A stretch of 64,000 bases of DNA from an uncultured Nitrososphaerota archaeon (GTDB lineage Archaea; Thermoproteota; Nitrososphaeria; Nitrososphaerales; CADDZS01). Below, piece after piece: positions 5,125 to 52,316 of the stretch (its first letter is position 1; each line of letters opens with the position of its first letter). The stretch is from NCBI GenBank assembly GCA_963799845.1, contig CAWCYI010000006.1, forward strand, positions 1,152,001-1,216,000, in the 5' to 3' direction. The notes beneath the pieces are model-generated. The model had not been told where the DNA came from. It did no database searches and saw only the letters and a program-made list of their open reading frames with translations. Both the position numbers and the translations under genes were made by a program.

Positions 5125-5910
5125 GTGGTATTAAACCTGAAATCACGTGACCTCTTCGATCTCTCTGGCAAGTCTGCGCTTGTGACCGGGGGTGGAAGAG
5201 GAATAGGCAAGACGATGGCCACCGCGTTAGCTGAAGCCGGGGCCGATGTTGCAATCGCCTCGCGAAATCTAGAATCTTGCATTGAGGTCGCAGGAGAAAT
5301 ATCGAAGGCGACGGGAAAGACGGTTCTCCCGGGAAAGCTTAACGTGACAGACAGAGACAGTGTCCATGAGCTCGTAACTTCCGTAGAAAAAAAATTTGGG
5401 AAGATCGACATCCTCGTGAACAACAGCGGGTCGACCTGGGGAGCCCCATTTGAAGAGATGCCGTTTGACAAGTGGGAGCAGGTCATCAAAACAAACCTCA
5501 CTGGAACTTTTCTCGTGTCCCAAGCGGTCGTCCCGATAATGAAACGCGTCGGATGGGGGAGGATAATCAATGTGTCTTCGATCGTAGGACTGGTTGCGCC
5601 GCCGGATTTCATGAGCACCATTGGTTACACAGCGAGTAAAGGAGGCATCATTTCACTTACCAGGGAGCTCGCGGTGAAGCTGGCTAAAGACAATATTATT
5701 GTAAACGCGATCGCGCCGAGCTTCTTCCCGTCCAAGATGACGAGTGCCTTCGTGCAGAAGTTCGGAGACAAGATCAGGGATTCAAATCCCATGAAAAGGA
5801 TGGGCGAGGAGGACGATCTCAAGGGTGTAGTAGTCTTCCTCGCGTCGCAGGCAGCGAGTTACATCACCGGTCAGGTAATCGCGGTCGACGGTGGCTATAC
5901 CGCAACCTGA
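5125..5910 (+). CDS. SDR family oxidoreductase (gluconate 5-dehydrogenase-like)
   Basis: TGGGRGIG, NNSG, YTASK and AVDGG motifs. Confidence 0.92.
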   Translation: MVLNLKSRDLFDLSGKSALVTGGGRGIGKTMATALAEAGADVAIASRNLESCIEVAGEISKATGKTVLPGKLNVTDRDSVHELVTSVEKKFGKIDILVNNSGSTWGAPFEEMPFDKWEQVIKTNLTGTFLVSQAVVPIMKRVGWGRIINVSSIVGLVAPPDFMSTIGYTASKGGIISLTRELAVKLAKDNIIVNAIAPSFFPSKMTSAFVQKFGDKIRDSNPMKRMGEEDDLKGVVVFLASQAASYITGQVIAVDGGYTAT

Positions 5911-5939
5911 ATCGACTTTATGCGAAACCCTGCGAAAGC

Positions 5940-7067
5940 TCAATTCACTCTGTGCTTATCGACGTACGAATCATCGATTTCAATCCCGAGACCCGGCCCG
6001 TCGGGAATTTTCACGTACCCGTCCTTTGGTACTTCGATCGGTTTCTTCAACATCTTGTCATGTCCCCAGTTTAGGGCAGGAAGATCTATTCCATACTCGA
6101 CGAACGGCGCATTTGGAACAGATCCTATTAATTGCAGTGCCGCAGCGAGAGTGATCGCCGCGTCGAAGGAATGCGGAACAAACAGCTTGTTTGCTGCTTC
6201 GGCGAGAGCGGCGACCTTCTTCAACTGCAGGATTCCGCCCGACGCGCATACATCAGCCTGGATGATGTCAAAGCAGTCTCCGTCAATCAGTTCTTTGAAC
6301 CGGAAGAATCCGTTTTCGTCTTCTCCGCCTGCAATCTGGACGTCCACTTCTCTCGAAAGCCTCGCCAGATCTTCATGGGCTGCGTGATAAAGCGGCTCTT
6401 CCAGCCAGTAGACGTTCAGCTTTCCGAGTTCTCTCGCAGTTTCCAGAGCTCTTCTGTATGTCCAGAAGGGGCCGGAGAATGTCGCCGCCTGGTTTGCATC
6501 AACCATGATCTTCATCTCGTCCTGCACAGCATTCCTGACGGCCCTTATGGGCGCGACGTCTTTTTCCAGGTCTTCGCTGTGAATCCTGATTTTGATCGCT
6601 CTAAATCCCATCTCCAGATATTTCAGAGCGTCTGCGGCATGTTCCTCCGGAGTTTTCAGCATGCCCGTGCTTGCATACGCCATTACACGATCCTGGGCAC
6701 CGCCAAGCAGTTTGTGAATCGGCTTGTTACAGGCTTTTCCAATGGCGTCCCACATCGCCACCTCGACGCCCCAAAGATCTACCGTGTTCATGCTGTAGGT
6801 GATGCCGTTGAGAATACGGATGATTTTTTCAGTGCTGAAGAGATCGGTTCCCAGCACGAGATCTTTGAAGACTCGAGACTCTCCAACAATTTTGATTTCT
6901 GATCCGAATGAATTCTGCCAGCCGTAGCCTGTAATTCCTTCGTCGGCGTGGACTTTGATTAGAGTACCGTCGGCAGTTCTCTGCGTGACGTTAGGAAACC
7001 ACGCGGGATGGAACGGAGCGTCCAGTGGTAGGGAGACGGGAATGAATTCGACGGAGGAGATTTTCAA
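5940..7067 (-). CDS. Mandelate racemase/muconate lactonizing enzyme family protein
   Basis: KIR catalytic motif, MVDAN, WLEEP, GGE metal ligands and C-terminal PGLGIE. Confidence 0.9.
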   Translation of the reverse strand: MKISSVEFIPVSLPLDAPFHPAWFPNVTQRTADGTLIKVHADEGITGYGWQNSFGSEIKIVGESRVFKDLVLGTDLFSTEKIIRILNGITYSMNTVDLWGVEVAMWDAIGKACNKPIHKLLGGAQDRVMAYASTGMLKTPEEHAADALKYLEMGFRAIKIRIHSEDLEKDVAPIRAVRNAVQDEMKIMVDANQAATFSGPFWTYRRALETARELGKLNVYWLEEPLYHAAHEDLARLSREVDVQIAGGEDENGFFRFKELIDGDCFDIIQADVCASGGILQLKKVAALAEAANKLFVPHSFDAAITLAAALQLIGSVPNAPFVEYGIDLPALNWGHDKMLKKPIEVPKDGYVKIPDGPGLGIEIDDSYVDKHRVN

Positions 7068-7119
7068 ATTTTTTTTCGAAGTCAGATCAGGTGATTTTGA
7101 ATTTAATGCTTACAAGCCA

Positions 7120-8944
7120 TCAGGGAAAGATGCGAATGCACGGCCTCGTGAAAAGCTGCCAGTTTCCCGTAGACTTGTCATACTTTGAATTTACGAATAC
7201 ATGCCAGTTCTCATCATCAAGTTTTGGAAAGTCAGCCCTGTAACAGTATCCCGGCCATCGCGTCTCCTTCCGGAATATGGTGTGTCTCAAAACAGACTCG
7301 GCGGTCATTACTCTGTGGTGAAGCTCCCAAGCCCTTTGAAGCTGGTGCAAATCCTCAGCCGCGATGTGCGCCAGATCCTCCCTCAGCATCGTCATGAGTT
7401 CCAATCCCCGATTGAGGAGCATTTCGTTCGTCGTGTACATCGGCCCCCAGCCGCCGGCGTACTCATCCATTAACTTCTCCAGTCTAACGACGAACTGGTC
7501 AGCGTACAGGTAAGACGGGGAGATGGTTCCCTTCGTTATCAAGTTCCTCCCTAAGGAAAAATTCTTCAGCGGTTGGAATATCTCTTCCTTGAGTTTCGCC
7601 ACTGCCTTCTCCGAAACTTCAGGCAAGTCTGAATGATCCATCGCGTATGCGACCGCCGCCTTACCCGCCAGCCTGCCCTCGGTGAAAGAACCGGAAGAAA
7701 ACTTGTGGGCGGACCCGCCTATAGTATCGCCGGCACCGAACAGTCCTTCGATAGTGGTCATTCGATTGTATCCCCAGAAGTATTCCTTCGGGGAGACGTC
7801 CTGAGGGCCGCTGGCCCACGCTCCGGAGCATGTGGCGTGCGACCCCATGATGTACGGCTCTGACGTCTGTAGTTCAGACGGTCTTTTCTTCGGATCAATG
7901 TTTTGCGAAGCCCAAACTATAGTCTGGCTCATAGTCATGTCGAGGAAATCTTCGTGCCCGAGCTCCTCCTTCTCCCTCGTATCAAGAACTCTCTCGGTGT
8001 GTATGTAGATTGGCTGTCTGCCCGCCTTTATCTCTCTGAGCATGGCGTCATTTCGAAGACACGTGGGAAACGGTTTGGAATCCACGTAGTTGCCGTACAG
8101 CGCTCTCTGATCTTCAAGATACCTCAACTCATAATCCTCGCCGTACGCGTTTGTCGCTACGGCCTTCAAAGCGAGGAACCACGCACCTACGGGCCCGTAC
8201 CCATCCTTGAACCTAGTGACAACAAGCTTGTTTTCCATCTGCGTCATCTCGGCTCCCACTCCGATAATTAGGGCGTACGCAGAACCCGTGCTCCAGGGTG
8301 CATACCATGTTCTCCCCGCCCCCTCTCCCACCGATCTCGGTCGGAAGATGTGTGTCCCTCCTCCCGAGGCGACGATTACTGCATTGGCACGGAAAATGTA
8401 GAATGCTCCATCCCTTACGTGAAATCCGACTGCACCGGCGACGCGATTCGGATTTGTCTCGTCGACCAGGAGATGGGTGATCATTATTCTGTTGTAGATC
8501 TTGGTTGCAGCTTTGGTTGCAGCTTCGGCAACAATCGGTTTGTACGACTCACCGTGAATCAGGATCTGCCACCTTCCCTCCCGCTTGTAGCGCCCCGTCT
8601 GGCTGTCGTAGATTATGGGTAGGCCCCACTCTTCAAAGAGGTGCACGGTAGAATCGACGTGCCTTGCGATATCAAATTCTAGATCCTCCCTGACGAGGCC
8701 CATCAGATCGTTCCTAGTGTACCGTACAAAGTCCTCGGGGGTGTTTTCGTTCCACCGCATTCCCATGTAGCAATTGATTGCGGAGAGGCCCATCGCCACG
8801 GCCCCGCTCCGCTCAATGTGGGCCTTCTCGACGACGACCACGTTCAGATTGCGTCCCCAGTACCTCAGCTTCGTACGCGGCTCCGCATCCAGCCATCCCC
8901 CCTCCAATCACCAGGATGTCACAGTTCACGGTCCTCGTCTTCAA
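7120..8944 (-). CDS. aprA: Adenylylsulfate (APS) reductase alpha subunit, lineage I type; one +1 frameshift at about 8866
   Basis: TTG start at 8944 reads MKTRTVNCDILVIGGGMAGCGAAYEA. Removing one base joins it to RYWGRNLNVVVVEKAHIERSGAVAMGLSAINCY; also GRTWY, YIMGSH, HKFSSGSFTEGR and ETRWPGYCYRADFP. Confidence 0.95.
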
Positions 8945-8978
8945 GATCTATCACTTTTTCAGAGAAGGCAGCATGAAG

Positions 8979-9437
8979 TTACTTTTTGATTTGCGCAAGT
9001 GTCGGCAGCCCGCGTTCTATCTTTAGATATTCAGGTTCATGTGAAAGAAGCTGCGAGCGAATATCCTCGGGCTTTGGTTGGTCGTAGTTTTGAGGTGCCT
9101 TTATCGAGCCCCACTTTGTCGTCCGAATCGGAAACGTAAATTGATTCTTTGAGTTATCCCTGTATTTTATTTTCCAGTGAATCTCATTCTTCTCTTCGTC
9201 GCGAAGAACAGTGAGCTTGTGGTCCAAGGGAGCAAAATCTGCATAACCACGAATGTCAATTGCGTGTTGAGGGCACTCCTTCACGCAGGAGTAGCACTCC
9301 CAGCAGTAACTCGGTTCGATGTTGTAGGCCTTCCTTCCATTGAAGATGCTGTGAGTTAGGTGCATGATATCACTGGGGCAGATGTCGACGCACTTGCCGC
9401 ACCCGTCACATAATGATGCATACACGAATGTTGGCAA
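8979..9437 (-). CDS. aprB: Adenylylsulfate reductase beta subunit (2x[4Fe-4S])
   Basis: MPTFV..CDGCGKCVDICPSDIM, CWECYSCVKECPQ.AI.IRGYADFAPL and F.FPIRTT.WGSI are AprB signatures. Confidence 0.95.
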   Translation of the reverse strand: MPTFVYASLCDGCGKCVDICPSDIMHLTHSIFNGRKAYNIEPSYCWECYSCVKECPQHAIDIRGYADFAPLDHKLTVLRDEEKNEIHWKIKYRDNSKNQFTFPIRTTKWGSIKAPQNYDQPKPEDIRSQLLSHEPEYLKIERGLPTLAQIKK

Positions 9438-9443
9438 TTTTAC

Positions 9444-10217
9444 TCACTTGTTTCTTTCGGAATTTTCTTTATTCATCGTGTCGGTTGATGCCTCCGCAGC
9501 TGGGAGAAGTGGCTCTACACCTGTTCTTTTGTCGATCTCTTCGTAAAGGAGAGAAATTGGTTTTGAGATCGCATGGAAGAATTTGGTAAATGGAGCTGTC
9601 GCGAGCAGTGTTATCACAAATGCCATGTGAACCCAGAACGAGCTCGAAACCCACTCCGATCCCATGGAAGAGTATATCGTTTGTTGCGCGATGAAACCGG
9701 TCACAACGGCCAGGAACAACGTCATGAGAAATACATCTGAGCGAGTCAAACGCCAGATCGGGGCGCCCTCGCGGTACCTGACATAGAACATTCCTAGAAA
9801 ACCAATAACGACGAGCACTCCGCCCACGTTGCCGAATAGCTTGACCGGATTGTAGAGCGGTAAAACGAGGTCAGTTGGATTTGTGAGGAACGCAAGAGTA
9901 GTGGATATTCCGAGGAAGACAAAGCCCCAGAAAATGGCGAGATGCGATACGCGTTTTGTCTTGCTGCAAGTTTCGAGAACGCGGAAGGCAAAGACTTCGC
10001 GTAACAAAATAGTAAAGAAACTTGGAACGATTTGTGACGATGAATTGGGTTCAGCGGTCTTCCCTTTCGTTCCCCCAGAGAAAATCTGCCACTGAAAGAA
10101 GTGATGCAGCGCACCCCCTTTCAACCTGTAAACTATGCCCAGAATAACAAGCAGAAGTACGATCAGACTTCCCGCGTCGATAACCAAATTGGGGATGGGC
10201 AGATTCATGAATGGCAT
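9444..10217 (-). CDS. aprM: APS reductase membrane anchor, AprM-like (QmoC/HdrE-type transmembrane fold)
   Basis: About 5 hydrophobic segments. KRVSHLAIFWGF, EGAPIWRLTRSDVF and FTKFFHAISKP parallel AprM motifs as recalled; lies directly upstream of aprB-aprA. Confidence 0.75.
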   Translation of the reverse strand: MPFMNLPIPNLVIDAGSLIVLLLVILGIVYRLKGGALHHFFQWQIFSGGTKGKTAEPNSSSQIVPSFFTILLREVFAFRVLETCSKTKRVSHLAIFWGFVFLGISTTLAFLTNPTDLVLPLYNPVKLFGNVGGVLVVIGFLGMFYVRYREGAPIWRLTRSDVFLMTLFLAVVTGFIAQQTIYSSMGSEWVSSSFWVHMAFVITLLATAPFTKFFHAISKPISLLYEEIDKRTGVEPLLPAAEASTDTMNKENSERNK

Positions 10218-10251
10218 TTGCTAGAACCTCAGCAATAAATCCGGGAAAATT

Positions 10252-11403
10252 CTACTCCGTAACTCTGACCCACTTTTCACTTCGGTTGGATTCAGCAATC
10301 GCGTCCATGATTAACATCGCTTTGTACCCGTCGTGAAATGTTGCGCCAATTGGTCCGAGCGGCTTGTCCGCAGCCAAGCACTCGATGAAGTGATTCAGCT
10401 CATTTGTAAACGAGTACTGCCAGGCAAAGCCCACTCCCTGATTTGTCCAGAACTTTTTCATGTGAGGATGATCCTTCATAACAGTCGGAACGCGTTTGAA
10501 TCCATCCAATCCTTTCTGCCCGTCCTTGATGAAAACTTCGAGCTCGTTCAGGTTTTCGAGGTTGAAACGGATCGTTCCCATCGTTCCGTACACTTCAAAT
10601 CGCAGGTAATCGATTCTTCCGGAAGTTAGCCAGCTGGTCTCGAAGAGGCCTAGCGCGCCATTTTGAAATCTCATGCATGCGATAGTTGTATCGTCCACAT
10701 CCACTTTGGTTTTCTCAGAAGACCCTTCCTGAACGGGTCTTTCTTTGATGAAGGTCTCTGAAGCTCCAGAGACAGATGAAACCTCACCTACGAGAAATCT
10801 AGCCAGATCGATAGCATGTGTACCCAGATCGGCGAGTGCACCGTACCCGGCAGTTTCGGATTGATGAAGCCATCTGATTGGAAAATTTGGATCGTCAAAT
10901 CCCCCATCAAAATTCAGATATGCACTTTTGAAGTAGTGTATTTTACCTAGAGTTCCGTTTTTGATCAGGTCACGAGCGAAGGTCACTGCCGGGAGAAATC
11001 GATAGTTGAATCCAGTCATGTGCTTGACGTGCGCTCTTTCTGCCACATCGAGCATCCTCTTTGCATCCGGTGCATTTTTTGCAAGAGGTTTTTCGCAAAC
11101 GAGTTGCTTGCCTGCTTCCGCCGCTGCAATTGTTGGTTCTGGGTGCATGGATGGCGGCGCGCAATTGTCAAAAATTTCTACGCCTTTGTCTTTGACGAGG
11201 TCCTCCCAATTGGAATAGGTTCTTCCAATACCGAACCTGTCAGCTTCAAATTCTACATTATCTTTCGATCTCCCTGCGAGAGCAACCAGCTTCGGTTTGA
11301 GTTTAGGAGGATAAAAATAACGTGAAAGATCCTGCCACCCGTACGCATGAGCCTTTCCGATGGAGTAGCCCAGAATTCCTACTCCAATTTCTCTTTCCGA
11401 CAT
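10252..11403 (-). CDS. Gfo/Idh/MocA family oxidoreductase
   Basis: CEKPLA, GFNYRF and GALADLGTHAIDL motifs. Confidence 0.92.
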   Translation of the reverse strand: MSEREIGVGILGYSIGKAHAYGWQDLSRYFYPPKLKPKLVALAGRSKDNVEFEADRFGIGRTYSNWEDLVKDKGVEIFDNCAPPSMHPEPTIAAAEAGKQLVCEKPLAKNAPDAKRMLDVAERAHVKHMTGFNYRFLPAVTFARDLIKNGTLGKIHYFKSAYLNFDGGFDDPNFPIRWLHQSETAGYGALADLGTHAIDLARFLVGEVSSVSGASETFIKERPVQEGSSEKTKVDVDDTTIACMRFQNGALGLFETSWLTSGRIDYLRFEVYGTMGTIRFNLENLNELEVFIKDGQKGLDGFKRVPTVMKDHPHMKKFWTNQGVGFAWQYSFTNELNHFIECLAADKPLGPIGATFHDGYKAMLIMDAIAESNRSEKWVRVTE

Positions 11404-11539
11404 GAATTCGGGAAGCGACCCTGATTCAAACTATAGAAATCTATCGGTCAAGGTAGAAATTAACAGATGGGTACAAGAACGACGAGTAGGACAAACGTCC
11501 TAACTCTGCGGAGAGCTCGACAAGAATTATGAAATTGAG

Positions 11540-12649
11540 CTAAGTCTTGGAAAGGAGTGGAATAATCTCCTTGCCAATTCGGCGATAGTTCTCTCGGCTT
11601 GATACGAAATTGGCGAAGAAAATTTGGGTCGCTCCCTCACGAATGAATTTTTCGATTGTTGAAAGGCAGTCGTCGACTGTTCCTACAGCAATTATTTTGT
11701 CTATCACCTTTTGCAAGACCTCATCAGAGATATTGAGCCTCTCAACCGCCGCGGCGAGAGCATTGTCATATTCAGGTCCCGGTGTTGCAAACTGATAGTC
11801 AAGCTCTTTTGGAAGTGGCTGTCCTAGATCCTCTTCGCTGATGCCAAGGACTCCCAGCAGGTACTGGCTCAGAATCAAGTTGACCTTGAGGGCGTGTTTT
11901 ATCTCTCCCATCATCTCGGCCTTCTTTTTGTCGTCGTCGCAAATGATAGTGGGGATGCTCGCGATCAAATCAATTTCATCAATGGATCGGTTCGATTTTG
12001 ATGCCTCTGCCATAATCATCCGAACCTTCTGTCCGAAAACTTCGGGCGTGTTTTGAGATCCAGGATACCATCCGTCAGCCAGCTCCCCAACGAGGCGCAG
12101 CATCCCCTTTGATGAAAAAGCCCCGATGTAAATGGGGGGACTCGGTTTCTGCACCGGTGACAAACTCAGGTGCGCAGCGTTCAGCGAATAAAATTCCCCC
12201 GCGAAATTTGCCGGTCGGTCGTAGGCGGCGGCCCAAAGCAGTTTGATAACCTGGAGATTTTCCCTGAGACGCCTAATTCGGACACTTTTTTCTTCCCACG
12301 GAATCCCGTAGGGTTTGGTGTTCATTATTTCCCCCGCTCCTATTCCGAGGACGGCCCGCCCCTTGGTGAGGTTGTCCAGCGTTGCGACCGTGTTTGCGAT
12401 CTTTGCGGGATGCATTCTCTGAATGTCGGTGACGCCCGAACCCAGTTTGATTTTCTGAGTCTTCGCTCCGATGAATGCGAGGGTGGTCCACGTGTCGGTA
12501 ACTGCCTGGACTGGTCGGATGTCAACGAGGTGGTCAGGTACCCAGACGACGTCGAAACCCAGCCGCTCTGCCTCAATTCCGTCCGCAACAATGTCATCGA
12601 CATTGTCACCTACCAGTTCGCGAGAAAATGTCAGAGCTCTTCTTGTCAA
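11540..12649 (-). CDS. LLM-class flavin/F420-dependent oxidoreductase
   Basis: GFDVVWVPDH, HPAKIA..ATLD..GRAVLGIGAG and PPIYIG..GELADGW. Confidence 0.9.
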   Translation of the reverse strand: MTRRALTFSRELVGDNVDDIVADGIEAERLGFDVVWVPDHLVDIRPVQAVTDTWTTLAFIGAKTQKIKLGSGVTDIQRMHPAKIANTVATLDNLTKGRAVLGIGAGEIMNTKPYGIPWEEKSVRIRRLRENLQVIKLLWAAAYDRPANFAGEFYSLNAAHLSLSPVQKPSPPIYIGAFSSKGMLRLVGELADGWYPGSQNTPEVFGQKVRMIMAEASKSNRSIDEIDLIASIPTIICDDDKKKAEMMGEIKHALKVNLILSQYLLGVLGISEEDLGQPLPKELDYQFATPGPEYDNALAAAVERLNISDEVLQKVIDKIIAVGTVDDCLSTIEKFIREGATQIFFANFVSSRENYRRIGKEIIPLLSKT

Positions 12650-12679
12650 GTAACTAAAACCTGATTTCCTTTGAATCTG

Positions 12680-13813
12680 TTACTCGACGTCGACCCATTT
12701 CTGCGATATACTCGATTTCTGGATCGCTTCAACGACCTGTGATACCTTCCATCCGTCGTAGAAATCAGGTTTCACCTGAGATGAATTAACGACGGCGTTC
12801 AACACTTCGTAGATTTCGTTATTCAGAGAATCCTGGAAACCAGCACCCGAGCCCGTTGCCGGAAACGAAAAAGCAGACCCGTACGGATGAACGGGGCCCA
12901 TCATGATCGCGCGATGGCCCTGCAGATCCTTTGGATCTGAATTTGAATAGTAGCTCAACTCATTCGGCTTCTCGAAGTTGAAATAGACCGATCCCTCCGT
13001 TCCGTTCACCTCGAAATCCAGGTAGACTTTCCTGCCCAGCGAAGCCCAGCTCGTCTCGAGCCGCCCAGGCACGCCGTTGTCGAAATGCAGCAGTGCGCAA
13101 GTGTAATCGTCTACATCGACTGCGGCGGATTCGGATGAAGTGTTGAGAAGTTTCCGCTCTTTGATGAAAGTGTCTTGCAATCCGCATACGGATCGAATAT
13201 CGCCGATCAGAAATCTCGAAATGTCAATGATGTGCGAACCCAGATCTGCCAGCGCTCCGCCTCCGGCCCTTTTCGAGTCGTACCGCCAAGTAAAAGGCAT
13301 GTCTGGATTTGCGCCCCAGTCTTCCAGAAAACTCGTTCGGAATTGAGTGATTTTACCCAGAGCTTGGTCGTTGATGAGTTTCTTTGTAAGCAGGACAGCC
13401 GGGAGCCTGCGGTAGTTGAACCCCATAGCGTTCACAACTCCGGCTCGCGTCGCCGCTTCGTACATCCTCCTAGCGTCGGAAGAAGACGCTGCAATTGGCT
13501 TTTCGCACAGTATGTGTTTATGGTGTTCTGCTGCCTCTACTGCCACGTCTGCGTGCAGGTAGGTCGGGGCAACTATATCGACCAGGTCGACTTCAAGAGA
13601 TGAAGTGAGCGATTTCCAGTCCGAGAAATAACTTCCAAATCCCAGCCTTGACGCAGCTTGTGATGCTAGTTCTTCGGTGGCATCGGCAATTACAGAGAAT
13701 ACCGGCTTTGCAGTTTCGAACGAATGAAGCAGAGGCACGGACTCGTATGCCAAAACGTGGGCTTTCGCGATCGCACCGCCACCGACCATACCAATTTTGA
13801 TTTGTTTTTCCAT
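12680..13813 (-). CDS. Gfo/Idh/MocA family oxidoreductase
   Basis: GMVGGGAIA, CEKPIA, GFNYRR and GALADLGSHIID. Confidence 0.92.
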   Translation of the reverse strand: MEKQIKIGMVGGGAIAKAHVLAYESVPLLHSFETAKPVFSVIADATEELASQAASRLGFGSYFSDWKSLTSSLEVDLVDIVAPTYLHADVAVEAAEHHKHILCEKPIAASSSDARRMYEAATRAGVVNAMGFNYRRLPAVLLTKKLINDQALGKITQFRTSFLEDWGANPDMPFTWRYDSKRAGGGALADLGSHIIDISRFLIGDIRSVCGLQDTFIKERKLLNTSSESAAVDVDDYTCALLHFDNGVPGRLETSWASLGRKVYLDFEVNGTEGSVYFNFEKPNELSYYSNSDPKDLQGHRAIMMGPVHPYGSAFSFPATGSGAGFQDSLNNEIYEVLNAVVNSSQVKPDFYDGWKVSQVVEAIQKSSISQKWVDVE

Positions 13814-13921
13814 TTTCTCGAAAGCGAAAAATGCGGAATTCGTTCTGAACTTTTAAGTCTGTAGATAGTGGTTAGGATCTTTGGCTGAGCCACAGAGTTA
13901 CAGTGGCACCCTTTAGCTTAT

Positions 13922-15214
13922 TTGCAAAGCGTTTTCGAGCATAGCCGAACTAATTTGGAACTGAAGATAACTGGCGTAAAGACTGCTACGGTTGTGGGCA
14001 ATTATTACTGGACTTTTGTCAGAGTTTATGCGGGTGACCTTTACGGGACGGGAGAAGGCTACACCGCGCCTCAGCTTGAAAACATAATTCTTGAACTGTC
14101 TCCGCTTATCATCGGAGAGAACGCGCTTGACCTGAATTATGTGTACGACAAACTGCGTTGGGCAGCCGTTCCCTCAGGAGTTTCTGGGATTACATACCAT
14201 GCGATATCTGCTATAGAAATCGCAATTCTAGACCTCGTCGGGAAGTATCTGAACGTTCCAGTCTACACTCTGCTCGGCGGAAAATTCCGAGACAAGATAA
14301 GGATGTATGTTGACACTCACGCCGGAGAATCCCTGCACGCCCGCGACAGAGCACTGCGTCCGGCCTACACCAAGTGGATGAAGGAACTCAAACCTAATTC
14401 GGAAGATGCCGACATGAGTCCCAACGACCCGATGTTCGGCAGATCTACGATTCAAAAATTCACTGAGGCGTACACGCCGAAGGCTTACTCGGATCGCGCC
14501 ATCAAGATGAAGAATGAAGGTTTCACGGCTATCAAATTTGACCTCGATATCCCGACACCGTATTCGACGAATTTAGGGCAAAAGTCAGGATCTCTGAACA
14601 ATCGAGAGATTGATTATCTCGCAGAGCTCGTCGGGGCCGTAAGGGAGGGTGTAGGCGAGGAACATGACATCATGTTCGACCTGCACTGGAAGTACGACCT
14701 GGGAAGCTCAATCCGTCTCTTGCGGGCGATGGAGCCGTTCGGAGTCATGTGGATCGAAGACCCGTTGCCTCCTGAAGATCTGTCGCTACTGGGGCGGTTA
14801 ACGAGAATTACGACGACCCCGATAGCAAGCGGAGAAAACGTCTACACGCGATATGGCTTCGCTCGATTGCTAGAGACCGGCATCCCGATAATAACTCCAG
14901 ATTCGATAAAAGCTGGAGGATTGACCGAGACAAGGATGGCGGCCGCTCTAGCGGCGATGGCCGAAGTTGTTGTTTCTCCGCACAACGTCAGCAGTCCGAT
15001 AGGTACAATCGCGCAGTCTCATCTTGCTGCGTCCATTCCAAATTTTGGAGTCCTCGAGTTTCACGGCAGGGACGTTCCAATCTGGTACAAGCTGACAAAA
15101 CACCAGTTGATCAAGGATGGATTCATTACTCTAAAGGACGAGCCGGGCCTGGGAATCGAATTGGAAGAATCTGTGGCAAAGAATTATGCCCTCGACGATA
15201 AATTTGATTTATGA
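13922..15214 (+). CDS. Mandelate racemase-family sugar-acid dehydratase (gluconate/xylonate dehydratase-like)
   Basis: IKFD, FDLHW, WIEDP, SGEN, PHNV and PGLGIEL. Confidence 0.88.
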   Translation: MQSVFEHSRTNLELKITGVKTATVVGNYYWTFVRVYAGDLYGTGEGYTAPQLENIILELSPLIIGENALDLNYVYDKLRWAAVPSGVSGITYHAISAIEIAILDLVGKYLNVPVYTLLGGKFRDKIRMYVDTHAGESLHARDRALRPAYTKWMKELKPNSEDADMSPNDPMFGRSTIQKFTEAYTPKAYSDRAIKMKNEGFTAIKFDLDIPTPYSTNLGQKSGSLNNREIDYLAELVGAVREGVGEEHDIMFDLHWKYDLGSSIRLLRAMEPFGVMWIEDPLPPEDLSLLGRLTRITTTPIASGENVYTRYGFARLLETGIPIITPDSIKAGGLTETRMAAALAAMAEVVVSPHNVSSPIGTIAQSHLAASIPNFGVLEFHGRDVPIWYKLTKHQLIKDGFITLKDEPGLGIELEESVAKNYALDDKFDL

Positions 15215-44325: not shown

Positions 44326-46091
44326 TCAAACTTGGTCGACAACCGCATCGACGACAGCGGATATCTTCTCGTTTCTAATTGTCTCAAAACCTGACAAAAT
44401 TGCTTCCTTTAGTTCGGCAGCGTTTTTGACTTTCCAACCAGTTGCGCCACAGGCCTTTGCTGCTTCAACGTAATCCGGCTGAGGACCAATTCTTACTCCC
44501 GCGTAATGATCTTTTGACTTGGAATAGCCGTTAGGATAACCGCGATCGACAACTCCCTTCATCGCGTTGTATCCACCGTTATCTATTATCACAGTCAAGA
44601 TTGGAAGTCTGATATCTGCGAGAGACCCAAAACACCGACGTAGGGTTTGAGTAAACGTACCCTCCATCACCAACTATGCACAAAACATCACTTCCGGTAT
44701 TGGCGAGCTTTAAGCCAAGTGCGTTTCCGAGACCATCGCCTAGGCTACTGCCACCTAAGGAGAAGTAAGTTCCAGGCTCATTTGAATCAATGTAGGAAGC
44801 GACAACCATTTCATTGGAAACTCCCTCCGACATCACTATCGTATTTGAGTTCTTAAGATCATTTAGAATAGAAATAACCGAGCCAATCTTCATAGGTGTT
44901 TTGTCTTTACCGGACTCGGCAGTTTTCTTCAAACTGTTGCGAATCGCTTGACTGGCATCGTGAATTTTGCTCGTTCTTTCATCTAATTTACTTGCATGAC
45001 CATTTTGTGCCTTGGTTTTGAGAATCTTGACTAGACTGTGAAGGGCTAATTGGGAAGAAGCGCAGACTGATAGATGAACGGGAAACCCCCATAACGGCAT
45101 TCCTGACTTTAGTGGGTCAACATCGATTTGAATGATCTTGACGTCCTGTCTAATTCGATGAATCGCTGGAGCCCACGGCACATCTACGTCCACAAGCAGG
45201 ATAACATCGGCACTTTCTATCCATTCTTTTGGAAAGCCTCTCAGGCTTAGAGGATTGCTTGAAGGAAAATTCATTCTTTTTCTCTGGGGCTCTATGACGG
45301 GTGCGCCCAGAATCTCCGCCAGTTCGACAAGCTCTGGAACGGCCTTGGGATTTCGCCCCAGAGTACTCTGTGAGGATAATCGGTGCGTCCGCTCCTTCAA
45401 GAATACTTGCTATTCTAACAAGATTTTCCTCACTGGCTTGTGAAGGCTCAGGCGAAATGTACACATCAGTTCGAGGTATATTCACCTCCGTCTGCTTTTC
45501 TGCCAATAATTCCCTTGGTAAGATTAGATAGGCGGGACCTTTTGGTTCCGAATTCGCTACCTGGAGAGCTCGTCCAAGAACTTGGGGCAAGTTAGAATTG
45601 GTTTTCAGTTCGTAGGTCCACTTTGAAAATTGCCTAGCAACACCCAGTTGATCGAAAATTTCTTGATCCCAGTGGTACGGTCTGTCACGCCCACCGAGAA
45701 GCTCTCCTTCAAACGTGTAAGGTGCTCTACCTGCGACGATCAGAACTGGCTCTCTTCCACGGTAGATGTTGTGAAGGGCCCCACCGATCTCCATCGTTCC
45801 AAGGCCAACATGGACCATGATAGTTTGAGCCTTCCCAACAGTCATGGAGTAACCATGAGACATGGAGAGAGCTAGATGCTCGGTAAGGCACATTATCGGT
45901 TTTGGATTTTTTCGACCTTCGATCTCAAATCTTGACATTTGCTCAAGAACCGGATAAAAATCTGAACCGGGATTGTAAAACAAAAAATCCACTTTGTACG
46001 CTGAAAGGAGCTCAAGAAAAGAGCTCCCACCGTCGCTACTTGGAATCGTATGTTCGTTCCTAGGATTCAATATATACCAGACTGTTACCAA
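44326..46091 (-). CDS. Thiamine-pyrophosphate-requiring enzyme (ALS-like); two frameshifts at about 45362 and 44608
   Basis: NPGSDF, EHLA.SMSHGY, HVGLGT, GPAYL, GDGGY...NGGY; three consecutive ORFs tile one TPP enzyme. Confidence 0.88.
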
Positions 46092-46166: not shown

Positions 46167-47339
46167 TTATCGTTTTGATTTCGCTACAATCGCAGGGGAG
46201 ATGTACAGCACTCCAGTGGAACCGAAGGAAGATCCGACGAATGAGAGCGGCTGATCAGTCTGAAATGGCCCAGAAGGTTCAGGGACAGTCCCGATTTGTT
46301 GCAGTGCCTTCTGAAGAACTGAAAAATTGTATATCTGATTTACATTCCCGGTTGAATTGATCAAGCCTCCGTAAAACATGTACGTGTCAGAGGCGTTCAT
46401 TAGGGCTGGAGTGAATGTAATCATGTTCGGGCTGAAGTAGTCCGCTGCTTGAAGAATGTATTGAGTCGAGTTATAGACAGATTTGTCCAGTGACGTAAAG
46501 TTCGCATTGTACGTACTTTGAATCCAAGCAGGCAAGTTATTCGTTGCATTTCTAGCGCTCCGTAGTACAGCGATCATGAAGTCAACAGCGATCTGGAAAT
46601 GAGAATTTAGCCAAGTTTTATTTGCAAAGTAGAGTCCTCCTCCGATCCCAGGCAGAGCTTGAGCCGTAGTTGCAAGAATATGGAACTTTCCAGGATCAGC
46701 TTTGAATACGGTAGCAGCATCTTCTGGATCTAGGAAAGCTCCGACATATCTACCAGCAATAAGCGCCTGCGCTTTTACACTTGAATCTCCAATCACGACC
46801 AAATTGATGTTGTAATTCGAGTAATTCTGATTGTTAGCAGCAAATACAGCCGGGAACAATACGGGCCCGTCGAGTGAGAAAGCCGCAAGAGTTGTACCGT
46901 TAAGCTGAGGGAACGAAGTTATACTGTTTGAAACAACAAAATCCTGAAGAAAGGCGGTAGATTCTTCGCCGATAGCAACGAGATTTGCGCCTTGTTCGAT
47001 AGCGTTTATCGTGGTCGTAGCAAATTGAAACGCGAACATGTTGACTTGATTATTGGAACCCGCAGAAGTCAGGGTAGCCGGGTCAGAGATTGTTTGTACA
47101 GTAGCTTGCAAATTGTATTGTGACATATGATTCAGCGCATCTATGGTGTCGGCGTGGGTTGCATCGGAGGCTTCCAAACCAAATGTGAAAGTTTGTGTGG
47201 ATGCTTTACTCGGAGTCAAATAATAGTACGCACCGGCGGCGGCGGCGATAACAATTATGACAACAATAACAACCACTAGTGTTGTGCTAATGCCAGATAG
47301 CTGTCGTCCTTTCAGCCGAACAAAATTCACCCTTTGCAC
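46167..47339 (-). CDS. ABC transporter substrate-binding protein, NitT/TauT (SsuA/THI5-like)
   Basis: N-terminal anchor; LNGTTLA and GDSSVKAQALIAG; follows permease and ATPase genes. Confidence 0.8.
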   Translation of the reverse strand: MQRVNFVRLKGRQLSGISTTLVVVIVVIIVIAAAAGAYYYLTPSKASTQTFTFGLEASDATHADTIDALNHMSQYNLQATVQTISDPATLTSAGSNNQVNMFAFQFATTTINAIEQGANLVAIGEESTAFLQDFVVSNSITSFPQLNGTTLAAFSLDGPVLFPAVFAANNQNYSNYNINLVVIGDSSVKAQALIAGRYVGAFLDPEDAATVFKADPGKFHILATTAQALPGIGGGLYFANKTWLNSHFQIAVDFMIAVLRSARNATNNLPAWIQSTYNANFTSLDKSVYNSTQYILQAADYFSPNMITFTPALMNASDTYMFYGGLINSTGNVNQIYNFSVLQKALQQIGTVPEPSGPFQTDQPLSFVGSSFGSTGVLYISPAIVAKSKR

Positions 47340-47460
47340 AATCTCCTCGAAGGACGATTCTGATATAAGTGTTTAGGGATTTTTGTTATCAATCAGAATA
47401 TGGCTTCATGTTAATTCTATTTTGGGCCAACCATATACTGTGGTCGTCATTTTTAGGGCG

Positions 47461-48258
47461 CTACATTCCAGCAAATGTATTCAACCGGTTTCCGCGAGTC
47501 ACTCTGCGTTCAACGATTCTGAGAAATTCTGACAGCATATATCCCACGATTGCAAGTACGATCAAAATCGCAAGAATCTGATCAGTTCGGTAGAATTCTT
47601 GACCAAGGAGTAGCAAGTTTCCTACCCCAGTAACAACCAGCTCAAGCTGAGCTATGACCACCCCGATAAGAGCGATGCTTAGTCCGAGCCTCAAAGAAGC
47701 AAAGATGTATGGCGCGCTTGATGGGATTATTACTTTTGTAAATATCTGACCTTCTGAGGCGCAACCCACTCTGGCGACTTCTATGAATAGTTTGTCGGTG
47801 TTCTTGACCCCCTGAGAAACTATTAATATGATAGGGAAGAAAGAGAACGTATAAACGAAAAGAACACTTGTCAAGAGACCGAATCCAAACCAAATTATGA
47901 AAAGTGGAATTAGGGCAACTCTGGGCAGAACATAAAACGCGGTCATGTATGGTTCGACTACTTCGTCTACTATCTTCACCCTGCCCATGGTCAGGCCAAT
48001 TGGGATTCCCGTGATAACAGAGAGTCCAAATCCCAAAAGCAACAACCAGAGCATGCTTAGAATTGCTCCCCAGAAGTTGTGTTTCTCAAAGAGATTAACG
48101 AGTGCGTTAAGTACGGTGGTTGGAGACGAGAAGATTAACTGGTTTGACCGAGAGGCAATCAGTTGCCAAATTATCAGAATGATAATGAGAGATATAACAA
48201 ATATTACAGCCCTTCGAGCAAGCTCTCGGATACGTGTTTTCGGTAACTCAGAGCTCAA
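47461..48258 (-). CDS. ABC transporter permease, NitT/TauT family
   Basis: LPRVALIPLFIIWFG, EAA-loop (EVARVGCASE) and PYIFASLR. Confidence 0.92.
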   Translation of the reverse strand: MSSELPKTRIRELARRAVIFVISLIIILIIWQLIASRSNQLIFSSPTTVLNALVNLFEKHNFWGAILSMLWLLLLGFGLSVITGIPIGLTMGRVKIVDEVVEPYMTAFYVLPRVALIPLFIIWFGFGLLTSVLFVYTFSFFPIILIVSQGVKNTDKLFIEVARVGCASEGQIFTKVIIPSSAPYIFASLRLGLSIALIGVVIAQLELVVTGVGNLLLLGQEFYRTDQILAILIVLAIVGYMLSEFLRIVERRVTRGNRLNTFAGM

Positions 48259-49076
48259 CTAATCACCTGATCCTCGACAAGAGAGGACCTCACAGTGGCA
48301 CAATATCCAGTAAATTTCGGGTCGGTTCTGATCCCTTTTTCACTAGTTCTTCCGCTACCTAGATCAATCGAAAGTGTATCCTTGATCCTTCCTGGTCTAG
48401 GAGTGAATACAACTACTGTATTGCTCACGAAGACGGCTTCATCAATACTATGGGTAACAAATAGAACCGAGCGTTCTCGATCATTACTCAGGACATTGAG
48501 CAAGTCTTGCTGAGCTTTCTCTCTACTGAGGGCGTCGAGCGCACCAAACGGTTCATCCATCAATAGAATACTTGGTTCGACGCTCAAAGCTCTTGCTATC
48601 GCAACTCTCTGTTGCATTCCACCAGAAAGTTGAACTGGAGAATAGTTAGCGAATTCTAAGAGTCCGACGAGATTTAATTTTTCCAAGGCAATTTTCCTTC
48701 TTTCAGCCTTCGGGATTCCTCTAAGCTCCAAGAAGAATTCGACATTCTGAAGGGTATTCCTCCATGGATAGAGCCCGACCGCTTGGAATATGAAACCCTT
48801 GTCTTTTTCCGGTCCTTCTACCTTCTTATCATCGATCAATACTTGTCCCGTTGTAGGTTTCTCGAGTCCCGCGATGATCCTTAACAGAGTGCTCTTGCCG
48901 CATCCAGAAGGACCTACTACGCTCACAAATTCTCCTTTTGCAATCTGGAAACTCACATTCTGTAATGCGTCAAGATAGACTGGCTTGGATTGTCTGAAAG
49001 TACCTTGGCGCGTTTCACTCCTTGATACGAATCTCTTTGAGACATCTTGAATATCGCACTTGACAGCCATCGTCAT
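48255..49076 (-). CDS. ABC transporter ATP-binding protein, TauB/SsuB-like
   Basis: GPSGCGKS, LSGGMQQR, MDEPFGALD and VTHSIDEA. Confidence 0.95.
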   Translation of the reverse strand: MTMAVKCDIQDVSKRFVSRSETRQGTFRQSKPVYLDALQNVSFQIAKGEFVSVVGPSGCGKSTLLRIIAGLEKPTTGQVLIDDKKVEGPEKDKGFIFQAVGLYPWRNTLQNVEFFLELRGIPKAERRKIALEKLNLVGLLEFANYSPVQLSGGMQQRVAIARALSVEPSILLMDEPFGALDALSREKAQQDLLNVLSNDRERSVLFVTHSIDEAVFVSNTVVVFTPRPGRIKDTLSIDLGSGRTSEKGIRTDPKFTGYCATVRSSLVEDQVIS

Positions 49077-49091
49077 CTCAGTCCATATATT

Positions 49092-50150
49092 TTAGTCTCG
49101 AGTAATTGCTGGGAGAATTTCCTTCGAGATTAGCTCAATCGCCTCATCAGGCTTTGGCCCTATTAGATCGAAAGCAATCGGCATCTGAACTCCTAGGTCG
49201 CCCAACTTACGCAATTTCTTAATACAATCTTCGGGAGTTCCAGCTATGGAGAATTCCTCTATCATCTCGTCGGTTACTAGCTCTGCAGAATTGCGAATTC
49301 CGCCCCTCTTCATTCCTTCCTTGACTCTGTCCAAATCTTCGGGCTTTACTTTGCTGTGTTGCAGCATGAGTTCGCTAGCAGTCAAGGTAGGATCAGCGAC
49401 ATAAAGAGCGACAACCTCCCGCACAAAGTTCTTTGCCTCTTCAGAGTCTTTCCCAACCGAAAAAGTAAGATTAGAAGCTACCACGATGTCTTCTTTTTTC
49501 CTACCGGCGCGCCTCGCACCTTCGAAGACATGGTTCAAGCTTTCAATCACGTAGGAGCCAGAGGCGCTCAGCGATCTCGAAAGTATCACGCCGTCTGCAA
49601 CACCGCCGCAGAGCTCGAGAATCTTGGGGCTCCGACTTCCCAAATATATGGGAATATTTTTTCTGACTGGAACGAACCCATGGAAATCGAGCGTACTCCC
49701 GGGTTCGGAAATACTGAAGACTTCGCCGTGATAGGTAACGTTTTCCCCTCTTAACAATCTCCTGATTATTTCTACCGAGTCTTTCATTGCAGCATACGGC
49801 TTTTGATCTCTCGCGGTGTTCGCGCTCCTCGTGAGGCCATGTTTGACCAATGAAGTGACGTTAACACCTAGACCTAGATTGAACCTACCTCCAGAGAGCT
49901 CATCTATCGTTGCCGCTTCCATCGCAATCAGACCTGGGTGTCTTGTGTACACTCCGATTATTGCAGTGCCCAACTGTATTTTCTTGGTGTTCACAGCTAC
50001 CGCAGACAGAAGAGAGATTGCACTCCTGCCGTGAAAGCCTTCGCCTAACCAGAAACCCTGCAATCCATACCTCTCTGCCAAGATTGCGTAGCGAATCGTT
50101 TCTTCCGCCGTAGCGAAAGGCGCAATTGCGAACCCGTTGATATCGGTCAC
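49092..50150 (-). CDS. LLM-class (Mer-like, probably F420-dependent) oxidoreductase
   Basis: TRHP..IAM.AATIDELSGGRF.LGLG, IPIYLG and ADGV. Confidence 0.88.
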   Translation of the reverse strand: MTDINGFAIAPFATAEETIRYAILAERYGLQGFWLGEGFHGRSAISLLSAVAVNTKKIQLGTAIIGVYTRHPGLIAMEAATIDELSGGRFNLGLGVNVTSLVKHGLTRSANTARDQKPYAAMKDSVEIIRRLLRGENVTYHGEVFSISEPGSTLDFHGFVPVRKNIPIYLGSRSPKILELCGGVADGVILSRSLSASGSYVIESLNHVFEGARRAGRKKEDIVVASNLTFSVGKDSEEAKNFVREVVALYVADPTLTASELMLQHSKVKPEDLDRVKEGMKRGGIRNSAELVTDEMIEEFSIAGTPEDCIKKLRKLGDLGVQMPIAFDLIGPKPDEAIELISKEILPAITRD

Positions 50151-50194: not shown

Positions 50195-52316
50195 TTGCAA
50201 CAGAAAAAACTAACTAAGGACTATCCACAATTTGCTCGAATATTGCGATATAATATTGGAATCGATATCGGCGGAACTTTTACCGATTTTGTCGGCTTCG
50301 ATTCAAAGAGCTCTCGGCTATTCTCAGAAAAAATCTTGACGACTCCCAGTCGCCCTGCCGACGCAGTTATACAAGGTCTGGAGAAACTGGCTCTCTCCCG
50401 CGGAATCAAAATTGAGGAAATTGACAGAATCTTTCACGCGACAACCCTCGCAACGAACGCCGTTATCGAAAGGAAGGGCGCGAAGGCTGGACTCATAACC
50501 ACGGCCGGGTTCGAGGATGTTCTAGACATCAGAAAAGGACTCCGATACAATCAGTACGACCTAAACATCCAGATTCCTAAGCCGTATGTTCCAAGACATC
50601 TGCGCAGGGGAGTTTCCGAAAGAATGTTTGCTTCCGGTGAAATTCGAAACAAATTAGATCCGGTCGAACTCGAAAAATGTGTTTCGGAACTTGTTGATGA
50701 GAGAATTGAATCTCTTGCAATCTGCTTTCTTCATTCGTATGCGAATCCCCTTCATGAAAAAAGAGCGAAAGAACTTGTTTCTACCAAATTCCCAAATCTA
50801 ACTGTCTCGTGCTCTCATGAGATTACTTCTCAAGCAAGAGAATACGAGCGAACTTCTACAACTGTCATTGATGCGTACATCAAACCGATAATTCACGAGT
50901 ATATTGATGACTTGTCTATGCGGCTATCTGAATTGGGTTTCTCTGGAAAACTACTTCTCATGACGTGTACGGGAGGCGTAGTTGAGGTCGAGCTAGCGAA
51001 AAATATTCCGGTACTACTTCTAGAGTCTGGTCCTGTTGCTGGTGTTTCGATGGGTCTGAATATTGCCAAGAGACTAGACCTTCAGGGGATGTTTTCATTT
51101 GATATGGGAGGAACTACAGCCAAAGGCTGTCTTGTAAGGAATCGGAGAATAGAAAAATCGTATGAATTTGAAGCAGCGCGTTTCGATAAATTCAGACGTG
51201 GAAGCGGAGTCCCCGTTAGCATTCCGGTTGTAAGGCTAATTGAAACGGGCTCTGGAGGAGGGAGCATCGCTAGAATTGATCAATTGGGAATGGTGAGAGT
51301 TGGCCCCGATAGTTCCGGATCGTCTCCTGGACCTGCCTGCTACGGACTAGGTGGGACCGAAGCCACCGTAACAGACTCGGATTTGGTCTTAGGATATCTT
51401 GATGAAAGCTACTTCGTAGGAGGCACTTTGAGTCTTCGACCTGATCTTGCGAAGAGCGCTATCCAAGAAAAGATAGCTGAACCATTAGACATCCCGGTGG
51501 AGAACGCAGCTTGGCTAATTCACGAACGGGTAAATGAAGATGTGGCTTCAGCATTTCGGCTTTATTCATCGGAAGTCGGAGTCGACTATAGAAAATTCGC
51601 GTTCTTACCTTTTGGCGGAGCGGGTCCGGTACACTCCTCGAGGATCGCGAGGAAGTTGGGTCTAAGAACCCTAGTGATTCCTCCAAGGGCCGGCGTACTT
51701 TCAGCCGAAGGCCTCCTGGTGACTCCCATTTCCATAGATCTAGCATTGTCAAAACGCGTCGAATTGTCCGATTTGAGTTACGAAGAGGTACTCAGATACC
51801 TTCGAGAAATTGATCGACAACGCAACGTCCCTTCTTTCATCGGCAGAAGGACGGTCAAAGCCGTTTGACGTAACAAGGTCCCTTGACCTGTGCTATCATG
51901 GACAAGGATACGAAGTCCCATTGGCATTGACTGGAAAGGGAGTAACAAGAAAGGAGTACTCAAACTTGATCGTGAGTTTCGAGAACGCGTACAAGGAAAA
52001 ATATTCGATTACAAAGATTTCCAATCACGTCGACGTCACTTCATTCAAAGTGAATGTATCTTCTAAGAGTTCAGCATTGCCCCGAAGAATTCTCTATACA
52101 GTTCCGTCGAGACCGAAATCCTCCAGGCAAGCATTTGATCCAGATTCAATGAAATTTCGGACCTTCAAATTACTTAACCGGTATTCAATGAAAGCAGGAG
52201 ACTCCGTCAGGGGGCCTGCATTGATTCAAGAGGTCGAGTCGACTACAGTTCTGCTATCGAATTCATCCGCGACTATCGACAAGTTCGGAAACATTCTGGT
52301 GAGTCTTCATGGCTAA
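50195..52316 (+). CDS. Hydantoinase/oxoprolinase subunit A; frameshift at about 51787
   Basis: IDIGGTFTD, HATT..TN, ESGP.AG, DMGGTT, GGGSIA, GPACY and FGGAGP. The 51810-52316 ORF supplies the C-terminus (GPALI.E..STT). The likely start is TTG at 50243. Confidence 0.9.

Follow-up and report, generated by a model that had tools for sequence, protein, structure and literature searches.

An aprM-aprB-aprA operon for a dissimilatory-type APS reductase in a soil Nitrososphaerales archaeon, with a plausible role in sulfite oxidation

We describe a trio of genes, aprM-aprB-aprA, in an uncultured soil archaeon of the order Nitrososphaerales (GenBank assembly GCA_963799845.1; the genome bin is termed G000 below). 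The trio lies on the minus strand, all genes in one direction, in a window of 64,000 nucleotides, i.e. the whole stretch of DNA that was analyzed (contig CAWCYI010000006.1, positions 1,152,001 to 1,216,000; G000:C6:1152001-1216000). It encodes AprB and AprA, the two subunits of a dissimilatory-type adenosine 5'-phosphosulfate (APS) reductase, together with a predicted membrane partner, AprM. We find the aprA frame to be broken by an assembly error and the AprA protein to fall into an archaeal AprM-linked group rather than into lineage I of bacterial sulfur oxidizers. As to function, we lean towards a role of AprMBA in oxidation or detoxification of sulfite via APS, a direction suggested by gene content only. 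Since aprAB genes in such Nitrososphaeria have already been published, the operon is a new soil example of a reported archaeal kind.

The aprMBA operon and its reading frame

The features of the locus are as follows (window coordinates).

9444..10217, minus strand: aprM, 257-aa membrane protein, presumed to anchor AprBA on the quinone side and to exchange electrons with it
8979..9437, minus strand: aprB, 152-aa iron-sulfur subunit of APS reductase, TTG start
7120..8944, minus strand: aprA, flavin adenine dinucleotide (FAD) subunit of APS reductase, 607 aa without the spurious base
8944-8867 plus 8907-7120, minus strand: aprA as deposited, in two frames, with the main open reading frame (ORF; 7120-8907) accounting for 595 aa
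8866..8866, no strand: extra base breaking the aprA frame, a one-column insertion relative to 5/5 relatives, left out in the X1 and X3 contigs (see below)
10234..10239, minus strand: TTTATT box, 17-22 bases before the aprM ATG, read from the sequence

The order aprM (10217-9444), aprB (9437-8979), aprA (8944-7120) with short gaps, as described in an earlier sequence-only reading of this stretch, was confirmed, the gaps amounting to 6 bases between aprM and aprB and 34 bases between aprB and aprA. With 165.4 bits against the NCBIfam model TIGR02060 (curated equivalog cut-off 135.65) for AprB and 893.4 bits against TIGR02061 (cut-off 641.75) for AprA, the two proteins are identified at the sequence level as a dissimilatory-type APS reductase. 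The TTTATT box ahead of aprM could conceivably represent an archaeal TATA or promoter element.

In the deposited sequence, the AprA N-terminus (TTG at 8944, ..DILVIGGGMAGCGAAYEA) does not share the frame of ..RYWGRNL.. and the remaining 595 codons, such that the N-terminal FAD motif GGGMAGCGAA is read in a second frame. Exactly one base is surplus in comparison with all five relatives aligned, and every relative examined that has a complete gene shows an open aprA of 607-614 aa. The stretch is held by four public soil metagenome runs (X1-X4) of a single study, whose Logan contigs were placed on positions 7000-10300; the sole difference reported over this range was the omission of one letter at 8866. 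Two runs bridge this site, the X2 contig beginning at 8867 and X4 being without coverage there. A 5568-base contig of X1 (depth 6.6) spans the whole stretch and lacks base 8866 with no other difference, and a 285-base contig of X3 (8668-8953, depth 4.2) lacks it as well (2/2 bridging runs); removal of the base restores the YEARYWGR frame common to all relatives. The frameshift is an assembly error and the gene intact, on evidence that is good but not final, given the low depths and the chance that X1 is the source sample. The indel that the sequence-only reading had pointed out at 8866 is thus present in the deposited sequence, but does not stand as a defect of the gene. We regard it as highly improbable that the frameshift is real and aprA a pseudogene in the sequenced population: the base does occur in the deposited assembly, and the low contig depths and the potential origin of the assembly from X1 would fit this view, but the two runs agree in omitting the base, its omission restores the shared frame, and at least five more frame breaks in the window as well as 26 gaps in an overlap of two contigs (see below) are the mark of an indel-prone assembly.

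Assembly noise was evident at several other places. The further frame breaks in the window, at least five, fall into three other genes: a hydantoinase B gene and two thiamine pyrophosphate (TPP)-enzyme genes (52309-53954, 44326-46091 and 58498-60206) are split over two to three adjacent frames, the pieces of each matching consecutive profile ranges, and these splits are probably further assembly indels. The contig ends C2:29064-36319 and C3:1-7262 overlap by 7.3 kb; the shared part is 99% identical and contains 26 gaps, which is assembly redundancy plus indel noise. Among the contigs of G000, the share of long open frames is smallest in C3, C8, and C9. A second aprM-aprB-aprA set with the same downstream genes is located at C3:58472-62383 (continuing to 65254). 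It shares 82.5% DNA identity with the window locus, with 56 gaps, and 12 of the indels in its aprA have a length not divisible by three; substitutions per site between the two copies amount to 0.064, 0.047, and 0.347 at the first, second, and third codon position. With changes mainly at the third position, the C3 copy has the look of a functional gene and not of an old pseudogene; it sits on a low-quality contig and may come from a paralogous region or from a co-binned relative. As a practical consequence, frameshifts in this assembly should not be taken as pseudogenes.

Relative to the same-genus genome G004, identity is 91% for AprA, 89% for AprB, and 74% for AprM, compared with 67-72% for three flanking orthologues. 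Because these identities exceed those of the flanks and because divergence from the C3 copy is biased to the third codon position, the operon is, as far as its sequence tells, under selection. A chimeric contig, one of the concerns attached to the sequence-only reading, was ruled out by the X1 contig, which runs across both junctions, and by archaeal core genes in the window. The GC content of the locus (0.51-0.52 versus 0.47-0.48 for the contigs) is unremarkable.

Sequence features of AprA, AprB, and AprM

AprB starts with (TTG)PTFVYASLCDGCGKCVDICPSDIM and AprA contains NCYMGMRWNENTPED, so that the motifs quoted in the sequence-only reading are present, YEARYWGR upon removal of base 8866. Their use as signatures of lineage I had to be given up, as those of AprA are found in Qmo-linked bacterial and other archaeal sequences too. 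Against Archaeoglobus fulgidus AprA (2fja_A), AprA scored 680 bits, and the key residues listed by Meyer and Kuever 2008 (PMC2211403) are conserved with this structure, namely Asn74, Tyr95, Glu141, Trp234, Arg265, Val273, Gly274, Leu278, Arg317, and His398. In AprB, the eight cysteines of the two [4Fe-4S] clusters (C10, 13, 16, 20, 45, 48, 51, and 55) are invariant in 23/23 sequences, and so is Trp46, the equivalent of the electron-transfer tryptophan Trp-B48. The five-residue loop of Qmo-linked AprB is missing, as it is in the crenarchaeal group, hence its absence is not diagnostic. The cysteine spacing of 20/45/48/51, which results from a three-residue insertion common to L115 and L117, differs from the lineage I spacing of 20, 42, 45, and 48; Meyer and Kuever (PMC2211403) tabulate Cys20/45/48/51 for Caldivirga.

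The membrane protein AprM has six hydrophobic segments. It matched the NCBIfam model QmoC over the membrane half of the profile (177-360; E 1.9e-20, short of the full-length cut-off), the NCBIfam model TcuB (E 8e-12), and the Pfam model of the NarI gamma subunit (E 2.2e-4, below cut-off). His92 and His215 are invariant in archaeal and bacterial AprM (20/20 and 23/23), as are Arg147, Asp161, and Lys212-Phe213 (23 archaeal and bacterial proteins), at an overall identity to bacterial AprM of just 19-22%. In the AlphaFold model (pLDDT 79.8), the nearest folds are the membrane domain of mycobacterial EtfD (Z 11.4, 226 residues aligned) and NarI (Z 10.7, 175 aligned), Z scores in a range that helix bundles can reach by chance, and a Foldseek search of the model against the PDB gave no match at E <= 0.001, with EtfD on top at 2.7e-3. 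Taken together, these data are suggestive of a NarI/QmoC/HdrE-type membrane anchor and a candidate for haem b binding, as a prediction.

Phylogenetic position and distribution

For AprA we computed a quick maximum-likelihood tree of 67 rows with support by the Shimodaira-Hasegawa-like approximate likelihood ratio test (SH-aLRT) alone. Of 72 bacterial loci, 29 were hand-picked; partial sequences were excluded, and the rows include no named Allochromatium sequence. The outgroup branches had a length of 10, which is far too long, and the tree is read without a root. The window sequence groups with those of G004 and G010 (98), within a nine-row clade (99) that also comprises f9 sequences, L017, L018, and L033. 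The 25 AprM-linked bacterial AprA rows constitute a separate clade (SH-aLRT 100) with the window outside, and the Thermoproteota rows form another one (95) together with the bacterial loci L020, L058, L076, and L082, a QmoC-like gene following downstream in three of these four. Residues particular to the bacterial AprM type are lacking as well: AprA is without AQGLY and PEDH, and AprB without the bacterial TT.PWG insertion and K.GVYY tail. Judging from tree and residues, AprA of the window belongs to the archaeal AprM-linked group and not within bacterial lineage I, to which the sequence-only reading had assigned it. Forcing the nine-row clade together with the bacterial AprM clade cost 9.3 log-likelihood units (approximately unbiased test, p 0.062), so that a sister relation of the archaeal group to lineage I would be borderline unrejected.

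AprA is 87-89% identical to that of G010, a member of the same family listed as "archaeon Maxine3", 74-86% to genomes labeled Nitrososphaerota or Thaumarchaeota, and 80% to one labeled Marsarchaeota. The proteins of SAR11, Thioglobus, Thiothrix, and Gallionellaceae share 56-68% with it. A recent transfer from bacteria was therefore rejected, the tree being against it and identities reaching 74-91% within the archaeal group versus 56-68% to bacteria.

The order aprM-aprB-aprA repeats in nearly all archaeal relatives examined; in L033, an aprM match is missing and aprB has a long upstream frame. Within the host family (f1), aprA scored above cut-off in two of 12 other genomes, i.e. 3/13 including G000. 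A class-wide sample contained aprA in 17/401 genomes, restricted to families f9 (3/11), f21 (4/9), and f26 (9/17), with none in the two large families of the sample (0/223 and 0/78), one representative of each of which carries amoA. This accords with the earlier statement that Apr is not a standard thaumarchaeal trait. A phylum-wide sample had 27/401 positives including G000, the other 26 belonging to the Thermoproteota families f39 (15/23) and f51 (11/12), presumed, on genome size and Apr frequency only, to be the sulfate-reducing Thermoproteales of the Caldivirga/Vulcanisaeta/Pyrobaculum group, in which AprM-like genes flank aprBA as well. The archaeal AprM-linked group is made up of four Nitrososphaeria families without ammonia oxidizers plus one Marsarchaeota-labeled genome only.

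Two genomes of family f26, G109 (L097, L109) and G121 (L095, L108), harbor two aprA paralogues each, which fall into different tree clades, one near the group of the window and one with Thermoproteota family f51.

Sulfur gene content and direction of the reaction

The host bin has a size of 4.6 Mb in nine contigs, with 86.7% completeness and 4.9% contamination. Thermosome, TBP, CDC48, and a his operon in the window are archaeal core genes, in keeping with the Nitrososphaerota host proposed before, and members of the same order carry amoA. An archaeal amoA model gave no match in G000 or G004, the search being validated by three complete order-mates in which the same model finds amoA. The COX1 subunit of a haem-copper oxidase is encoded. 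The host is a soil archaeon of the Nitrososphaerales, the order of the ammonia oxidizers, without amoA itself and, in our reading, aerobic.

In the mechanism that we envisage, AprA with its FAD and AprB with its two [4Fe-4S] clusters would interconvert sulfite plus AMP and APS, while AprM would exchange two electrons with the quinone pool. The likely direction is oxidative, from sulfite and AMP to APS, with electrons passing via quinone to the oxidase; APS might then be split to sulfate with gain of ATP by Sat, on the supposition that the single, distant enzyme of this genome is used. We favor the oxidative direction because the genome shows no enzyme that would reduce sulfite further. Within the 86.7% covered by G000, neither dsrA nor any NIR_SIR domain nor a PAPS_reduct/CysH gene was found, and dsrA was also not found in the two other apr-positive f1 genomes (87% and 88% complete). 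The window itself holds no sat, qmo, or dsr gene according to Pfam searches of the neighbors (ORFs of at least about 90 aa), in agreement with the sequence-only reading; qmoABC beside aprBA is likewise not seen in the window, with no genome-wide search made for qmoAB. The genome-wide search for dsrA and sat that had been suggested retrieved a single sat, unlinked and about 360 kb away from aprMBA.

Relatives provide a further hint. Sat directly follows aprA in six of the seven relative loci with scanned flanks. At L017 (904-4172), aprMBA-sat is located beside an LplA-like ligase, an HdrC-like Fer4_8 protein, and DsrE2, and at the Marsarchaeota-labeled L032 (3795-4754, 10241-12628) beside an LplA-like ligase, an HdrC-like Fer4_8 protein, and a radical SAM protein. 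We read these neighbors as an sHdr-type sulfur oxidation gene set; the DsrE2, LplA-like, and HdrC-like genes of the two loci have no homologues in G000 (tblastn, E 1e-5). Counting COX1, the one sat, the lack of dsrA, NIR_SIR, and PAPS_reduct, and the sHdr-like neighbors in L017 and L032, the reaction most likely runs in the oxidative direction.

Several observations weigh against sulfite oxidation by AprMBA. Six SUOX/Oxidored_molyb genes in G000 (L137-L142, of which one lies on the suspect contig C3) could already handle sulfite, and among the candidates checked in this genome no sulfite-producing enzyme was identified. The sat of G000 is just 39-41% identical to the apr-linked sat of relatives, a type not found in G000, and resides in a sat-PF01663 phosphodiesterase-cysC string next to a divergent ComA-MarR fusion gene (G000:C6:1520124-1524844; L143 8116-13103); the sat-phosphodiesterase-cysC operon suggests synthesis of 3'-phosphoadenosine 5'-phosphosulfate (PAPS). 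In the sister-family genome G351 (L145, G351:C1:910000-929999, family f9), aprMBA-sat is immediately preceded by dsr genes, the complete island reading CobB/CobQ-like (DsrN-like)-dsrA-dsrB-DsrK-like-DsrE2-aprM-aprB-aprA-sat, with a DsrK-like protein of 685 aa (Fer4 plus CCG and a weak Rieske match), and such dsr-apr sets are taken as sulfate reduction by Luo et al. 2024 (PMC10833072). Nor can AprM set the direction, since families f39 and f51 likewise have AprM-like genes beside aprBA. Finally, G000 is 13% incomplete and 4.9% contaminated. Sulfite oxidation via APS, as put forward in the sequence-only reading, thus holds up as plausible from gene content, but AprM is not decisive for it, and in G351 dsrAB lie 6 kb from a like operon.

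As potential sources of sulfite or partners of the pathway, several genes were considered and discarded. The luciferase-like monooxygenases (LLMs) at 11540-12649, next to the operon, and 49092-50150 scored 53 and 44 bits as SsuD (cut-off 518) and are best described as F420-dependent LLM/Mer-like proteins; the two TPP enzymes of the window reached about 40 bits as Xsc (cut-off 676); and the homologue of a metallo-beta-lactamase (MBL) neighbor of L018, at C6:387024, turned out to be a generic MBL that forms part of a sugar-nucleotide cluster.

A reductive, assimilatory-like role has to be weighed as well. Here Sat would make APS, and AprMBA would use quinol to convert it to sulfite for phosphosulfolactate synthase (ComA) and sulfonate synthesis, AprBA then taking the place of the APS reductase that this CysH-less lineage lacks. 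The gene arrangement lends itself to this view: sat of G000 is situated about 850 bases from the divergent ComA-MarR gene, in G002 and G004 sat and ComA are found within 2 kb of each other on one contig, and G010 has aprMBA-sat-cysC in a single string. ComA is present in 11/12 other family genomes, mostly with 2-4 matches, and PAPS_reduct in 0/13 genomes of the family versus 7/8 other families of the order. Overall counts for family f1, which include the unpublished G001 among the 12 others, are PAPS_reduct 0/13, NIR_SIR 2/13, sat 10/13, and ComA 12/13. However, aprA occurs in just 3/13 of these genomes, whereas ComA and sat are family-wide; ComA is therefore independent of Apr, and apr and cysH are not complementary, which weakens the reductive role without removing it. 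In addition, quinol is a weak reductant for APS, and the sHdr-like neighbors in L017 and L032 point the opposite way. We consider such a role unlikely, yet worth keeping in mind. Somewhat less likely still is a version at the level of the soil family f1, in which CysH is lacking (0/13) and Sir mostly so (2/13) but sat-cysC is retained next to ComA, and where AprMBA would operate in reverse, as an APS reductase whose sulfite goes into sulfolactate-type sulfonate synthesis. If true, a respiratory enzyme would have been recruited for biosynthesis, and apr-less members would have to draw the sulfite for ComA from another source.

The operon might also be left over from an ancestral dsr-apr-sat island, decaying or idle and with no present role. 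The full island is retained in G351 and aprMBA-sat-cysC in G010, and the window and G004 have just the trio among unrelated, non-conserved neighbors, with the apr-linked sat type missing from G000. A remnant is nevertheless hard to reconcile with a frame that is intact once the assembly error is removed, with retention of all catalytic residues, with divergence biased to the third codon position, and with the high identity to G004, so that we give this possibility little credence. Even less probable, in our estimate, is a function in dissimilatory sulfate reduction with dsrAB hidden in the unassembled 13% of the genome. DsrA-like genes were detected in six of 20 apr-positive genomes searched (about 330 bits, below the TIGR cut-off), accompanying aprA in 5/6 f26 genomes and in G351, and sulfate reduction has been proposed for such genomes (Luo et al. 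2024, PMC10833072); but dsrA is found in 0/3 apr-positive f1 genomes, each 87-88% complete, G000 has no NIR_SIR domain at all, and soil habitat and oxidase speak against it. Oxidation or detoxification of sulfite via APS is hence the function that we would tentatively put first.

Genomic surroundings

AprMBA sits in a co-directional string of sugar and sugar-acid genes (window 5125-15214), with gaps of just 34 and 52 bases from aprM and aprA to the adjoining genes. On the aprMBA strand, two Gfo/Idh/MocA enzymes resembling levoglucosan dehydrogenase are joined by an F420-type LLM and an enolase-superfamily dehydratase; a short-chain dehydrogenase/reductase (SDR) and a second enolase-type dehydratase flank it on the opposite strand. 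A cytochrome P450, a major facilitator superfamily (MFS) transporter, and a peptide-binding protein complete a neighbor set of heterotroph genes. The sugar-acid genes were dismissed as apr partners, the linkage being kept neither in same-genus G004 nor in other relatives.

At window positions 46167-50150 (minus strand), a NitT/TauT-type ATP-binding cassette (ABC) transporter adjoins an LLM oxidoreductase of the F420 type and a 390-aa protein without annotation. The TauB-like ATPase of the transporter scored 238 bits (cut-off 357), and its permease is TauC/SsuC/SaoP-like; the transporter may serve uptake of sulfonate- or nitrate-type compounds and is unspecific in this regard.

Comparison with known systems

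Luo et al. 2024 (ISME J, PMC10833072) reported aprAB, sat, dsrAB, and dsrMKOP in non-ammonia-oxidizing Nitrososphaeria, and describe the aprAB carriers of the class as strict aerobes or facultative anaerobes; the K00394 row of their Supplementary Data 2 has at least 16 non-zero columns. Gain of adenylylsulfate reductase in Thaumarchaeota BS4 and DS1 is mentioned by Abby et al. 2020 (PMC7554672). The main text of the Gagatemarchaeaceae paper makes no mention of apr, sulfite, sulfate, or adenylyl. Neukirchen et al. 2023 treat Apr plus Sat in Dsr-less organisms, with assimilation or sulfite detoxification as possible roles. The operon in the window shares with the carriers of Luo and Abby the class, the enzyme, and a patchy occurrence only in lineages without ammonia oxidation; L017, L018, L019, L021, and L022, at 74-86% AprA identity, look like genomes of the Luo type. 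Those carriers often have sat alongside, and some of them possess dsrAB, whereas the window comes from a large 4.6 Mb soil genome of family f1 without linked sat, dsrAB, Sir, or CysH.

With the sat-aprMBA arrangement of Allochromatium vinosum and lineage I (PMC2211403), the locus has in common aprM directly before aprBA, a homologous AprM, an AprB without the Qmo loop, an AprA identity of 62-68%, and the same proposed oxidative role. It differs by its position outside the bacterial clade, the low AprM identity, the absence of sat from the operon, and the missing AprA and AprB residues detailed above. The A. fulgidus AprAB (PDB 1JNR, 2FJA) is alike in fold family and catalytic residues, but is of the Qmo-linked reductive type with AprA insertions and an extra AprB loop. 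The aprBA loci of families f39 and f51 resemble the window in being archaeal, in their AprM-like neighbor, and in the three-residue AprB insertion (shared with L115 and L117), but their AprA identity is 49-62% and they cluster with Qmo-linked bacteria. Thermoproteales-type organisms, as presumed for these two families, are described in the literature as carrying dsrAB.

Significance

The present example extends AprMBA to large-genome aerobic soil Nitrososphaerales without ammonia oxidation, Dsr, Sir, or CysH, and shows that the AprM-linked enzyme type is not confined to bacterial sulfur oxidizers. A coherent archaeal group between bacterial lineage I and the presumed Thermoproteales group also bears on the evolution of Apr. 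If the enzyme is active, common soil archaea would join in the turnover of sulfite and organosulfur compounds, in a manner resembling SAR11 at sea.

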